A DNA stretch of 3,375 nucleotides from NCBI RefSeq assembly GCF_024298765.1, contig NZ_CP101216.1; one strand, 5' to 3'. The notes below the pieces were generated by a model. That model was given only the letters and a program-made list of their open reading frames with translations, searched no databases and was not told the DNA's origin. The translations under genes were made by a program, and so were the position numbers. Every line of letters starts with the position of its first letter. The stretch's first letter is position 1. The stretch is from Escherichia coli (lineage in GTDB: Bacteria > Pseudomonadota > Gammaproteobacteria > Enterobacterales > Enterobacteriaceae). Below, one piece after another: positions 211-3,375 of the stretch.

Positions 211-394
211 ACCGCTCGCCGCAGCCCCAGCGACCGAACGTAGTGAGCGAGTGGGCGAGGAAGCGGAAGAGTCACAGATGCAAGCATTGTGCACTTACGC
301 GCCTGTGCCAGTGTCCGCGTGTGTGCTGTTTATCGGGTGCGCTGTTTTTACATCTGTGCGGCTTTTTACTCCTGACATGGTGCACTTCCCATCC

Positions 395-560
395 ATGTCT
401 GCACCGATGCAAAATGAGATAAGCCAGTATACACATCGCTATCGCTCTGTGAACTGGGTCAGGGCTGCGCCCCGACACCCGCACTGACGCGCCCTGGCGG
501 GCTTGTCTGCTCCCGGCATCCGCTCACAGGCAAGCTGTGAACGTCTCCGGGAGCTGCATG
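395..560 (-). other. oriT / bom (basis of mobility) of the ColE1 family, with predicted nic site between 424 and 423 on the minus strand
   Basis: Reverse complement of 417-435 reads TGTGTATACTGGCTTATCT, matching the conserved ColE1/pBR322 nic region GTGTATACTGGCTTAAC. The flanks are near-identical to pBR322 bom as recalled: revcomp of 458-478 GGGTGTCGGGGCGCAGCC, of 500-526 GCGGATGCCGGGAGCAGACAAGCCCG, and of 543-561 ACATGCAGCTCCCGGAGAC. The nick position CTGG/CTTA is from memory of the ColE1 literature. Confidence 0.8.
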
Positions 561-562
561 TT

Positions 563-754
563 TCAGTTGCTTTCACCGTCATCGCCGAAGCGTGCGAGGC
601 AACTGCGGTAGAGTTCGTCGGCGTGGTCGTGAAGTGATTCGCAGATGTCTGCCTGTTCGTCCGCGTCCAGATCGTTGAGTTTTTCCAGCAGGGTTAGCGT
701 CTGGCTTCTGATAAAGCGAGCCATGTTAAGGGCTGTTTTTTCCTGTTTGGTCAT
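563..754 (-). CDS. rop: Rop/Rom, RNA I-RNA II interaction modulator (plasmid copy-number control), 63 aa
   Basis: Translation MTKQEKTALNMARFIRSQTLTLLEKLNDLDADEQADICESLHDHADELYRSCLARFGDDGESN is near-identical to ColE1/pBR322 Rop as I recall it (E to D at residue 27, last residues differ). ATG start with an AGGAG Shine-Dalgarno on the minus strand (revcomp of 763-767) about 8 nt upstream; TGA stop. Confidence 0.95.
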   Translation of the reverse strand: MTKQEKTALNMARFIRSQTLTLLEKLNDLDADEQADICESLHDHADELYRSCLARFGDDGESN

Positions 755-802
755 GGTCTTAAGGCTCCTTGTATGGGGGATTTGTTAGGGGGAATGATAC
801 CG

Positions 803-1141
803 ATGAAACGCGAGAAGATGCTCACGATACGGGTTACCGATGAGGAGCACGCCCGGTTACTGGAACGCTGCGAGGGTAAACGACTGGCGGAATGGATGCG
901 GCGGGTCTGTCTGGGGGAGCCGGTTGCACGCACAGGAAAACTGCCGACACTATCGCCGCCATTGCTGCGGCATCTGGCTGCCATCGGGAACAACCTGAAC
1001 CAGACAGCCCGGAAGGTGAACAGCGGCCAGTGGTCTTCGATTGACCGGGTTCATGTGGTGGCCGCACTGATGGCCATCGAGGGTGAATTGCGCCAGTTGC
1101 GGCAGGCTGTCAGGGAACAGGGGGTACGGGATGATAGTTAA
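803..1141 (+). CDS. mbeC: MbeC/MobC relaxosome accessory protein (ribbon-helix-helix nicking accessory protein)
   Basis: Sequence MKREKMLTIRVTDEEHARLLERCEGKRLAEWMRRV... matches the ColE1 MbeC family; the same start (ATGAAACGAGAGAGGATGCTCACGATACGGGTTAC) survives as a remnant upstream of rop in pBR322. Start is ambiguous: 803 has the best SD spacing (AGGGGGAA at 786-793); 818 (MLTIRV..., 107 aa) and 794 are in-frame alternatives. The TAA stop at 1139-1141 overlaps the mbeA ATG at 1131. Confidence 0.9.
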   Translation: MKREKMLTIRVTDEEHARLLERCEGKRLAEWMRRVCLGEPVARTGKLPTLSPPLLRHLAAIGNNLNQTARKVNSGQWSSIDRVHVVAALMAIEGELRQLRQAVREQGVRDDS

Positions 1142-2705
1142 ATTTCATGCCAGGGGGAAAGGCGGTGGAAGTGGCCCGGTCGATTACCTGCTGGGGCGGG
1201 AGCGTAACCGCGAAGGCGCAACGGTGCTCCGGGGTAACCCGGAAGAAGTGCGGGAACTCATTGATTCCACGCCATTCTCGAAGAAATACACTTCAGGCGT
1301 TCTGTCGTTCGCGGAGAAGGAGTTACCGCCGGGTGAACGCGAAAGAGTGATGACGAGCTTTGAGCGTGTTCTTATGCCCGGTCTCGAAAAAGACCAGTAC
1401 AGCATTCTCTGGGTGGAACACCAGGATAAGGGGCGGCTCGAACTGAATTTTGTCATCCCGAACATGGAGCTACAGAGCGGTAAGCGCCTCCAGCCGTACT
1501 ACGACCGCGCGGACAGGCCGAGGATAAATGCCTGGCAGACGCTGGTTAATCATCATTACGGGCTGCGTGACCCGAACGCACCGGAGAACAGACGGACGCT
1601 TGTCACGCCAAATAATCTGCCAAAAGCGAAACAGGAGGCCGCAGAAGCGATTACACGGGGTCTTGAGGCGCTTTACCATGCCGGAGCAATAAAAACGCGT
1701 CAGGATGTCACTGGGGCGCTCACAGCGGCAGGTTTTGAGGTGGTGAGGACAACCAGAAGCAGTATCAGTATTGCCGACCCGGAGGGTGGGCGGAATCTCA
1801 GGCTAAAGGGGGCGCTGTATGAGCAATCTTTTACAAATGGGAACAGACTTCGAGAAGAAACTGAAAGAGCGAGCCGCTTCTACCGAGAACATGCTGAACA
1901 GCGAGTTCAGGAAGCTCGAAGAGTCTGTAGACAAGGCACTGAGCTTAAACAGGCAGAAAATCAGAGACGCTATCAGCGGACATACAACATCCGTGAAACA
2001 GCAACTGGATACACTGAGCGCCACCGTGAGCACGCAGTTCAGCACCACAGAGGCCGAACTGTCCCGGCAGCAGAAAAAACTGCTCTGGCAGGTGATCAAA
2101 GGGCGGATACTGTTTCCGGCGCTGACCGCGCTCAGCGTCACGGGCGGCATTTTCCTGGGGTGCTGGGGGCTGATGGAGTGGCAGGAAAGCAAGATTGCGA
2201 AAAATATCCTGACTATCAGAGAGCAGGAAAACACGCTGGCGAAACTCGAGGCAAAAACCTGGGGGGTGACGTTCGTCAATGGCGAGAACGGGAAATTTCT
2301 GGTGTTGCCGGACGGGGTGAAAGGGGAAAACACCTGGACGGTGGGCGACAAGAACGCCGTGAGGCTGGTCAGGGAGTAAACGAGTATGACGGAACTGGAA
2401 GGGCATTTGCTGAACGCCTTAGAGCATTTGCAACAGGACTATATGCGGCGGCTGAACGAGTGGGAGAGCGCCTTCGCGGAATTGCAGAAGATGCACGAGG
2501 TTACGCAACGGAACAACGCGATACTGAACGAGCGCGTCGTGATATTGAGTCAGCAGGTGCAGAGATTAGCCGGGCAAGTGGATCGCTTGAGTCGGTTATT
2601 TATCGCGAACAACAGCTAAGGGATGAACAGGAGCGTGCCCGGTACAGACATGAGGTACAGGAACGCGCGGCACGGGTTCGGAGTGGGCCATCAATGGAGA
2701 TGTGA
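1131..2705 (+). CDS. mbeA: MbeA/MobA relaxase, MOB-P5 (HEN) family, 524 aa
   Basis: N-terminus MIVKFHARGKGGGSGPVDYLLG places the catalytic Tyr at residue 19 as in ColE1 MbeA. WVEHQDKGRLELNFVIPN carries the H-E-N signature. The C-terminal half is R/E/G/A-rich low complexity, as in MbeA. I chose the 1131 ATG over the ORF-track start at 1083 because of homology and overlap coupling with the mbeC stop. Confidence 0.95.
   Translation: MIVKFHARGKGGGSGPVDYLLGRERNREGATVLRGNPEEVRELIDSTPFSKKYTSGVLSFAEKELPPGERERVMTSFERVLMPGLEKDQYSILWVEHQDKGRLELNFVIPNMELQSGKRLQPYYDRADRPRINAWQTLVNHHYGLRDPNAPENRRTLVTPNNLPKAKQEAAEAITRGLEALYHAGAIKTRQDVTGALTAAGFEVVRTTRSSISIADPEGGRNLRLKGALYEQSFTNGNRLREETERASRFYREHAEQRVQEARRVCRQGTELKQAENQRRYQRTYNIRETATGYTERHREHAVQHHRGRTVPAAEKTALAGDQRADTVSGADRAQRHGRHFPGVLGADGVAGKQDCEKYPDYQRAGKHAGETRGKNLGGDVRQWREREISGVAGRGERGKHLDGGRQERREAGQGVNEYDGTGRAFAERLRAFATGLYAAAERVGERLRGIAEDARGYATEQRDTERARRDIESAGAEISRASGSLESVIYREQQLRDEQERARYRHEVQERAARVRSGPSMEM
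1819..2379 (+). CDS. mbeB: MbeB/MobB mobilization protein, 186 aa, one predicted transmembrane segment (ILFPALTALSVTGGIFLGCWGLM)
   Basis: Lies entirely inside mbeA in the +1 frame, the hallmark ColE1 arrangement. Strong SD (AAGGGGG at 1806-1812) 6 nt before the ATG. Sequence has the MbeB-family character of a coiled N-terminal region followed by a TM helix. Confidence 0.85.
   Translation: MSNLLQMGTDFEKKLKERAASTENMLNSEFRKLEESVDKALSLNRQKIRDAISGHTTSVKQQLDTLSATVSTQFSTTEAELSRQQKKLLWQVIKGRILFPALTALSVTGGIFLGCWGLMEWQESKIAKNILTIREQENTLAKLEAKTWGVTFVNGENGKFLVLPDGVKGENTWTVGDKNAVRLVRE
2386..2619 (+). CDS. mbeD: MbeD/MobD-like protein, 77 aa, predicted coiled coil
   Basis: Same +1 frame as mbeB, starting 7 nt after the mbeB stop with an AGGGAG SD at 2370-2375; nested inside mbeA as in ColE1. 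Assignment rests on position and size; I cannot verify the sequence residue by residue from memory. Confidence 0.75.
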   Translation: MTELEGHLLNALEHLQQDYMRRLNEWESAFAELQKMHEVTQRNNAILNERVVILSQQVQRLAGQVDRLSRLFIANNS

Positions 2706-2805
2706 CCGGGGAAGTGACGAAATCTTGCCATTTTGACCAGTTCGACGGCTGGGGCGAGCGAAACAAATCGTGTGCCGTATTTGTGCATAGCTATGCAACA
2801 TCCTG

Positions 2806-2826
2806 AAAACGCATTTCACGCGTTTT
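2806..2826. terminator. Short hairpin (7-bp stem AAAACGC/GCGTTTT, 7-nt loop) about 100 nt downstream of the mbeA stop; weak candidate terminator in either direction
   Basis: Seen directly in sequence. The U-tract is mostly inside the stem, so termination efficiency is uncertain. Confidence 0.3.
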
Positions 2827-2833
2827 TGGGGAT

Positions 2834-3375
2834 TCAGCCAGGGGAAAACATGGTTTTTTTACTTTTTGAGCGTAAAGACGTGAAAAATCTCGTTATTGCA
2901 CTTGCGATCTTTCGTCGGCGGGCGTAGAACGAAAACAGCTCGCCAGGAAGGCGAGCTGTTTCGGGTTCATTGAGGTCTCTGACCTCCTCAATGTTCCTGT
3001 GGAAACTGTTGAGATCCACAACAGAAACCAGTTCATTCAGTTTGCATGAGCCTTCTGTATTCTTCAAGAATTTTTCAACAGCACAGTCTCCCAGGAACCC
3101 CGAAAAAAACCTGTTTTTGCAGATACTTGCGTATTTGCGAGAATCGTTTGCGGTTGGGGGAGCTGTGACGACGGCGACCGCACGCGTGAGAGTTCCGCTA
3201 CCGGCGCAGAGAGTTTCATCGACAGCGGACACCTGATGAGTTGCCACAAAAACCGTATGTAGCGCGGCTAGATTGGTTGAGTTAGACCTTGGCGGCAGTT
3301 CCCGGTATGTGGTGGCGTGACGGGTGAGATGGTGCGGCGAAGACGCATACGTCACGCAGGCGCGGGTTCTTCCAC
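2834..3375 (-). CDS. Hypothetical protein, 5'-truncated by the window edge (frame stays open past 3375); no recognisable domain
   Basis: A stop-free minus-strand frame of at least 180 codons, ending at a TGA (revcomp of 2834-2836) and convergent on the mob operon. Against it: no ATG anywhere in the frame (the listed start at 3353-3355 is GTG with no SD), and the strong hairpin at 2933-2961 lies inside it. Composition of the central part (KYASICKNRFFSGFLGDCAVEKFLKNTEGSCKLNELVSVVDLNSFHRNIEEVRDL) looks protein-like. Confidence 0.3.
   Translation of the reverse strand, partial: GRTRACVTYASSPHHLTRHATTYRELPPRSNSTNLAALHTVFVATHQVSAVDETLCAGSGTLTRAVAVVTAPPTANDSRKYASICKNRFFSGFLGDCAVEKFLKNTEGSCKLNELVSVVDLNSFHRNIEEVRDLNEPETARLPGELFSFYARRRKIASAITRFFTSLRSKSKKTMFSPG
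2850..2927 (+). CDS. Candidate small peptide, 25 aa (MVFLLFERKDVKNLVIALAIFRRRA), hydrophobic with a basic C-terminus; function unknown
   Basis: ATG at 2850 preceded by AGGGGA (2840-2845); TAG stop at 2925-2927, followed 5 nt later by a perfect GC-rich hairpin. No homology recognised. It overlaps the 3' end of the convergent minus-strand ORF, so at most one of the two readings is likely to be real. Confidence 0.2.
   Translation: MVFLLFERKDVKNLVIALAIFRRRA
2933..2961. terminator. Perfect 12-bp stem-loop (AAACAGCTCGCC, loop AGGAA, GGCGAGCTGTTT); candidate rho-independent, possibly bidirectional, terminator
   Basis: Seen directly in sequence. On the minus strand the stem is followed by TTTTCGTTCT; on the plus strand by TCGGGTTCATT. 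Confidence 0.45.

Follow-up and report, generated by a model that had tools for sequence, protein, structure and literature searches.

The genes rop and mbeC diverge across an interval of 48 bp, which is too short for two independent promoters and two leaders, so the signals of each gene must lie in or beyond the 5′ end of the other. The question raised by this locus was where transcription of each gene begins and whether copy control and mobilization interfere. The window (the whole stretch of DNA that was analyzed, 3,375 bp) was compared with its plasmid and metagenome relatives. Taken as a whole, the answer preferred here stands at about even chances: the junction is the standard one, the rop promoter would lie on the mbeC side of the gap, and the mbe operon would be transcribed from upstream. 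Under this joint estimate the 48 bp would be mostly two 5′ leaders with their ribosome-binding sites, head to head, and would hold no dedicated regulatory module.

The window is a complete ColE1-like cryptic plasmid of 3.37 kb, as judged from full-length nucleotide matches. Complete circular plasmids of 3,371–3,383 bp from E. coli and Salmonella were 99.5–99.9% identical to it over its full length; pSL476_3 (S. Heidelberg SL476) and pYZMc17-1_3k both reached 99.9%. PGAP annotation of the identical plasmids agreed with a gene set of rop, mbeC, mbeA, mbeB, and mbeD. The order that marks a ColE1/pMB1 rop-mbe module was present, namely a Rop gene, a divergent mbeC, and then mbeA with nested mbeB and mbeD:

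563–754, minus strand: rop (rom) coding sequence, 63 aa, ATG start (ORF list; Pfam Rop PF01815, E = 2.5e-37, full-length match, 1–57 of 57)
803–1141, plus strand: mbeC, MobC-family ribbon-helix-helix relaxosome accessory protein, 112 aa (Pfam MobC 6.5e-12, NikA-like 8.7e-12)
1131–2705, plus strand: mbeA relaxase, 524 aa (Pfam Relaxase 6.6e-7), overlapping the 3′ end of mbeC by 11 nt
1819–2379, plus strand: mbeB, nested in mbeA in another frame (MbeB_N 9.1e-22)
2386–2619, plus strand: mbeD, nested in mbeA in another frame (MbeD_MobD 2.9e-33)

The geometry of the junction was as the earlier note had read it from the sequence. The two genes diverge from ATG codons at 754 (minus strand; the complement of cat at 752–754) and 803 (plus strand), 755–802 being the 48 bp between them, and both Shine-Dalgarno sequences fall inside this gap, AGGAG for rop and AGGGGGAA at 787–794 for mbeC. 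The elements of the gap were:

755–802, no strand: 48-bp interval, its left part (755–792) lineage-variable and its right part (793–802) invariant
765–769, minus strand: rop Shine-Dalgarno sequence AGGAG (complement of ctcct), 10 nt before the ATG (sequence, alignments)
775–792, plus strand: two G-runs, 775–779 and 788–792 (sequence, alignments)
793–802, no strand: invariant block AATGATACCG, identical in 32 of the 34 unique junction cores among the matches listed

The junction was found in 1,115 PLSDB records (at least 80% coverage of window positions 640–840) and in at least 120 metagenome contigs. The metagenome scan was anchored only on the rop N-terminus and on mbeC codons 6–8, and left 793–802 unconstrained. 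Among the matches listed, 137 junctions had full flanks, with the window and the PLSDB loci counted in, and 34 were unique. Three junction lineages were distinguished: A (ColE1-type), B (the type of the window), and C (a third type). The rop-mbeC arrangement is conserved far beyond chance. It is the standard ColE1/pMB1-type layout, already known and not peculiar to this plasmid.

Within the gap, the three lineages differed over 755–792, where bases were substituted, inserted, or deleted and the G-runs varied in length, while AATGATACCG stayed unchanged. The GGAG core of the rop Shine-Dalgarno sequence was kept in all three, at a spacing of 5–11 nt, as was a G-rich Shine-Dalgarno sequence for mbeC; the rop start codon, ATG in the window, was GTG in ColE1 and most relatives. 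The second G-run (788–792) is likely the mbeC Shine-Dalgarno sequence, the AGGAG of rop-less relatives aligning no more than 2 nt away from it. Among natural variants, represented by otherwise near-identical metagenome junctions, the G-runs of the gap ranged from 4 to 8 G. This variation could be real slippage or assembly error; if real, it would shift the spacing between the mbeC Shine-Dalgarno sequence and its start codon, the second run being that Shine-Dalgarno sequence.

In ColE1 (NC_001371), rop occupies 1803..1612 on the minus strand and mbeC begins on the plus strand at 1843, 1852, or 1867. Junction nucleotide identity to ColE1 was 84.2% over 642–840. The two plasmids share the order ori - oriT - rop - mbeC - mbeA (with mbeB and mbeD nested), the same divergence, an identical AATGATACCGATGAAACGCGAGA block, and a matching GGAG/G-run layout. 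They differ in the rop start (GTG with a Shine-Dalgarno spacing of 5 nt in ColE1, ATG with 10 nt here), in the left half of the gap (CTGATGCCTCCGTGTAAGGGGGATTTCTGTTCATGGGGT in ColE1 vs. GGTCTTAAGGCTCCTTGTATGGGGGATTTGTTAGGGGG here), and in the colicin, immunity, lysis, and exclusion genes, which ColE1 carries and this 3.4-kb plasmid lacks.

BLAST of window positions 600–960 returned three classes of match: the full junction, rop alone, and mobC alone. Homology in the rop-alone class stopped at the rop start codon, and in the mobC-alone class it began at 805–806. Representatives of the latter are rop-less mobCABD plasmids of the ColE1 superfamily, among them those of the pSW200 type and 3–5 kb plasmids of Klebsiella or Enterobacter (L015–L019), which share the 3′ end of ori and the oriT core with the window. 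Their MobC genes showed ~70–75% nucleotide identity from the start codon on, with a Shine-Dalgarno sequence at the same aligned position and a TTG or CTG start two codons 5′ of the 803 equivalent. In these plasmids a CGGGAAA..TTCCCG hairpin lies within the ~62 GC-rich bp that link oriT to mobC. pSW200 itself has been described as bom-mobCABD (PMC3628316).

The size of the gap depends on the start codon of mbeC. Four in-frame candidates (773, 794, 803, and 818) were all in use in databases. A start at 773 gives 122 aa and a gap of 18 bp; the 794 equivalent gives the 115 aa of UniProt MBEC_ECOLX of ColE1 and a gap of 39 bp; 803 gives 112 aa and 48 bp; and 818, the usual PGAP call, gives 107 aa and 63 bp. 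The start at 818 is unlikely because the KR.K codons upstream of it are kept in rop-less relatives with synonymous changes. That at 773 is unlikely because its ATG is missing in close variants and G-run changes in lineage A break the frame. Rop-less relatives showed a strong AGGAG-N6-TTG, and lineage C showed GGAGG-N6-ATG at the 794 equivalent, clearly the mbeC start there, with just a GTG at the 803 position. From these comparisons the mbeC initiation zone is likely 794–803, so 48 bp is a fair figure for the gap. By the same comparisons, MbeC/MobC probably loses 5–8 residues when annotated from 818, the common PGAP start.

PGAP itself was inconsistent for MbeC/MobC (107 vs. 112 aa), and the 107-aa call loses the conserved KR.K residues just 5′ of the ribbon-helix-helix strand. 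Clustering at 90% identity placed the 112-aa (803) and 107-aa (818) forms of the window's MbeC together in cluster 1, and the ColE1 forms of MbeC, UniProt MBEC_ECOLX included, in a separate cluster 2. The four-way annotation of MbeC/MobC start codons is a by-product of practical use.

Promoter prediction on both strands across 600–950, by a sigma-70 scan and a PWM scan, gave no site that stood out. With spacer and TG terms included, the best PWM score on either strand of 600–950 was ~6; as a positive control, the probable RNA II promoter TTTGCA-17-GAGAAT at 3116–3144 scored 10. On the plus strand, no site in 700–800 scored above ~6, and inspection by eye found no TAnnnT hexamer in 700–792. The sigma-70 scan of 400–1200 and of the whole plasmid returned a single site, the one in oriT. 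For all three lineages, RNA folding of the plus-strand and rop leaders gave z-scores of -1.3 to +1.2, none significant. No inverted repeats were found in 360–860, and direct repeats shared with the gap were at chance level; the same repeat search found no MbeC operator overlapping the oriT-side promoter or the gap. The name of control region that the earlier note had given the interval thus found no promoter, operator repeat, or RNA structure above chance in the gap to rest on.

Several candidate elements were rejected. A conserved attenuator was one, since just two lineages formed the small CUCC...GGGG hairpin with its U-rich tract downstream. The putative operator repeats TACCGATGA (two copies, 798 and 835) and ACCGATG... 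(403 and 799) were at chance level and were not kept in ColE1 or lineage C. A leaderless mbeC mRNA started from a plus-strand AATGAT -10 was set aside in view of the Shine-Dalgarno sequence conserved upstream and the GTG of lineage C at 803. CsrA-type GGA pairs in the two G-runs failed on the second GGA, missing in the commonest ColE1-type variant GGGGTAATG.

The plasmid's best sigma-70-like site, TTCACA-16-TATACT (10 of 12 matches; 426–453, minus strand), lies 3′ of rop within the conserved nic region (oriT core 421–463) and faces the origin. The -35 hexamer is complementary to TGTGAA, which belongs to a CRP-like TGTGA-N6-TCAGG at 448–463. The site may be a promoter long ago described in pBR322.

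These scans bear first on the model that follows from the earlier note, in which promoters lie face to face or overlap within ~60 bp of the gap, that of mbe in the first rop codons and that of rop in the first mbeC codons, so that polymerases compete and copy control and mobilization are mutually repressive. Overlap is indeed forced by geometry if each gene has a proximal promoter. A weak plus-strand TTTCCA-19-TCTGAT at 682–712 recurred in lineage C, an ATGTTA-17-TTTAGT was present in ColE1 and lineage C, and the best-conserved stretches of the sampled junctions included the beginning of rop and the first 35 nt of mbeC. However, all plus-strand candidates scored at most 6.5 and no one site ran across all lineages, the stretch 700–792 was without the TAnnnT hexamer, and in rop-less relatives, L017 excepted, the 62 bp leading up to mobC were devoid of promoter-like sequence. 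The conservation, too, was in part forced by the search pattern and in part explained by protein coding. Synonymous-site constraint was uninformative as a footprint of an embedded promoter, because a few lineages dominate the sample and the search pattern forced some of the conservation. This arrangement of paired proximal promoters is unlikely, if still deserving some weight. What stands of the overlap claim is its geometric logic, together with a candidate rop -10 in the mbeC initiation region; its other half is weakened in that the mbe promoter may be distant.

On the side of rop, the reading preferred here places the promoter on the mbeC side of the gap. The rop strand of the invariant block reads CGGTATCATT, in which 799->794 is TATCAT; this -10, the complement of AATGATACCG, would sit between the mbeC Shine-Dalgarno sequence and start codon. 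TATCAT is the best candidate for the rop -10 because the block is invariant, is absent from rop-less plasmids, and is kept in a rop-only lineage. The block was unchanged across three lineages that differ elsewhere in the gap by substitutions and indels. In rop-less mobC plasmids it was missing, and the spacer between Shine-Dalgarno sequence and start was unrelated. In the rop-only lineage without mbeC, homology upstream of rop reached just to TTATCAT, a retention that represents a single evolutionary event. The -35 of this candidate would fall in the following region:

817–825, minus strand: region for the rop -35, inside mbeC codons 5–8; candidates weak (AGCATC at 17 bp, TGAGCA at 19 bp)

Transcription of rop would then start near 786, with a leader of ~32 nt, and RNA polymerase at the rop promoter would cover the mbeC initiation region. 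The candidate scored 5.5 by PWM, a level frequent by chance, with a poor -35 and no TG extension. The vector pBR322 keeps rop, the whole gap, and, on the opposite strand, the ~30 first codons of the mbeC homologue; GGTATCATTACCCCC upstream of rop is among the sequence kept. Its rop still functions, which implies that rop can be expressed with no more upstream DNA than this. With its mobilization genes deleted, pBR322 allows no interplay with mbe transcription.

The rop-only lineage is non-mobilizable and was represented by NZ_CP051732 and CP057881. It has lost mbeC by rearrangement, with a breakpoint at the ~800 equivalent, exactly at the edge of TATCAT.

The plus strand of AATGATACCG carries the in-frame ATG at 794 where UniProt MbeC starts, and conservation of the block might just as well reflect its role as codons 1–3, ATG ATA CCG, of the 115-aa form. 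On this observation rests a second alternative, without coupling of the two genes. It takes the gap as two leaders and AATGATACCG as kept because it encodes Met-Ile-Pro, the N-terminus of MbeC, and provides the context of initiation; rop would be expressed from an unrelated weak promoter and mbe at a very low level, so that encounters between polymerases would be inconsequential. The UniProt ColE1 MbeC begins at the ATG within the block, lineage C has its ideally spaced GGAGG-N6-ATG there with the GTG alone at 803, and promoter, repeat, and structure signals were all within chance. Against it, three codons without a synonymous change in three lineages are unusual where neighbors vary, the codons are not kept in rop-less relatives, and the 794 ATG of lineages A and B is just 1–2 nt from the G-run, a poor Shine-Dalgarno spacing. 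Retention of TATCAT in the rop-only lineage, which lacks mbeC, also speaks against it. The absence of any coupling was accordingly judged improbable, a shade more so than paired proximal promoters.

For the mbe operon, the reading preferred here looks beyond the gap, in or beside which no recognizable promoter would serve the operon. The features concerned lie on the far side of rop:

421–507, no strand: oriT/bom core AAGCCAGTATACAC ... GGGCTTGTC, common to ColE1 and rop-less mobC plasmids (alignment, BLAST boundaries)
386–415, plus strand: promoter-like TTCCCA-18-CAAAAT, candidate mbe promoter; rop-less and rop-bearing relatives have a site of this form at the position that aligns with it

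In an alignment of 230–562 with ColE1 and other plasmids, oriT/bom fell 3′ of rop and separated that gene from the origin of replication. In an aligned set of five rop-less mobC plasmids, the window plasmid, and ColE1, homology with the rop-less plasmids covered the ori 3′ flank and oriT up to GGCTTGTC (507) and resumed at ~805, at the mobC start. The spacer between oriT and mobC was ~62 GC-rich bp in rop-less plasmids vs. ~295 bp, including rop, in the window. By this comparison rop is located between oriT and the mob operon, so mbe transcription probably enters from upstream and passes antisense through rop. The lack of a promoter-like site in the 62-bp spacer of the rop-less relatives, L017 aside, suggests that transcription of the operon normally comes from a point 5′ of this spacer.

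The 386–415 site lies just 5′ of the oriT core and is directed to rop (antisense) and mbeC. The best plus-strand candidates of rop-less plasmids also lay just 5′ of the nic-region core (TTGATT-16-CATAAT, TTCATA-16-TAACAT, and TTCACT-17-CAACAT). Across 90 unique oriT contexts a site of this form recurred, its -10 ending 2–7 nt before GCCAGTATACAC; on the plus strand of rop-bearing and rop-less plasmids, TTCAxx-16/18-CAxxxT was conserved in position. The median PWM score of the oriT-side site was 6.3 against a background of 4.7 +/- 2.6, and ~25% of background windows reach that median. The site lies in sequence conserved for oriT function anyway, and its -10 in ColE1 is poor (CATGGT). On these comparisons the gap may have no mbe promoter near it; the operon may instead be served from oriT, ~385 nt off, or from a point 5′ of oriT. 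The mbe start would be either this oriT-proximal promoter, common to rop-less relatives, or a weak site inside rop; in either case the transcript would traverse rop in antisense before reaching mbeC. That mbe transcription begins upstream of rop and crosses it in antisense was rated somewhat better than even, with an oriT promoter, a weak promoter inside rop, and RNA II read-through taken together. The earlier note had expected starts mapping far upstream to mean that the two transcripts share no regulatory sequence; this inference is inverted, since for divergent genes starts farther upstream give more transcript overlap.

The plus strand is RNA II-sense 3′ of the origin, as taken from the ColE1 alignment and from the pUC/pMB1 ori sequence, and rop is the only protein gene opposing the co-directional RNA II, oriT, and mbeCABD. 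A whole-plasmid scan found no strong plus-strand terminator between oriT and mbeC. From the origin to mbeC, the terminator-like hairpins on the plus strand were a moderate one at 321–342 and a weak one at 765–779, with no others. Followed by TGTTTTT, the former was the one reasonable terminator-like candidate that the plus strand offered from the origin to oriT; in this plasmid lineage it could limit RNA II read-through. Compared with ColE1 and the rop-less plasmids, the window carries extra stretches in this part, a larger one at ~250–290 and a smaller one at ~310–322.

The remaining alternative, that non-priming primer transcripts continue through oriT and antisense through rop into mbeC and so tie mobilization gene expression directly to replication control, draws on the RNA II sense of the plus strand, the candidate RNA II promoter at 3116–3144, and the two modest hairpins on the way, but it was thought very doubtful, as the 321–342 hairpin and T-run, in a lineage-specific insert, could halt such transcripts, and it is compatible with the other models.

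Returning to upstream transcription of mbe, mob operons with an oriT promoter and relaxosome autoregulation (R1162/RSF1010, pMV158 MobM, RA3 MobC) likewise have a MobC-type ribbon-helix-helix first gene by oriT, and here too a promoter-like site lies at the oriT core. The difference is that in the window rop, of opposite polarity, separates oriT from the operon. RA3 MobC represses its own promoter (PMC4175270). Autoregulation of ColE1 mbe was undocumented in the accessible literature. Mapped rop or mbe promoters were likewise absent from the accessible full-text literature.

Both promoter positions, and with them any interference between rop and mbe, are inferred; as a hypothesis, interference is plausible. 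Its strongest form is that mbe transcription, from an oriT-proximal promoter or from RNA II read-through, would run head-on across rop and its promoter and would reciprocally couple Rop and copy number to mobilization output. The route would be polymerase collision, promoter occlusion, or a long antisense RNA, and the coupling would have begun when, in some ancestral plasmid, rop took its place between oriT and mobC. Such reciprocal coupling was given as small a probability as transcription by RNA II read-through.

As found, the junction is of little import, being part of the textbook ColE1/pMB1 backbone that is present in pBR322-type vectors. If interference between rop and mbe were true, it would be of modest import, linking copy-number control to horizontal mobilization in one of the commonest families of small plasmids of enterobacteria. 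An explanation would also be at hand for the apparent travel of rop and the MOB-HEN relaxase as one module; the two co-occur and seem to co-evolve as one region between oriT and cer (PMC8683028). That co-occurrence fits a linked module and is silent on transcription.

Some observations concerned the plasmid as a whole. The replicon looks ColE1-like. The ori 3′ flank aligned with that of ColE1, and the RNA II-like promoter candidate at 3116–3144 would give a predicted RNA II of only ~400 nt. An Rfam search of the whole plasmid returned zero matches, with no RNAI at E <= 1, and PLSDB assigned no replicon type to the identical plasmids. The part formed by 2700–3375 and 1–250 thus seems to contain an RNA I/RNA II region so divergent that standard typing does not detect it. 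A run of ~14 A at 168–181 occupies the position equivalent to the ColE1 RNA-DNA switch; that polymorphism of this homopolymer, or sequencing error in it, accounts for the length spread of 3,371–3,383 bp is only a guess. In the PLSDB gene tables of all records inspected, ColE1 included, mbeA was absent despite an intact ORF. It was probably dropped as a pseudogene or for want of a protein accession, in turn probably because mbeB and mbeD are nested inside it.
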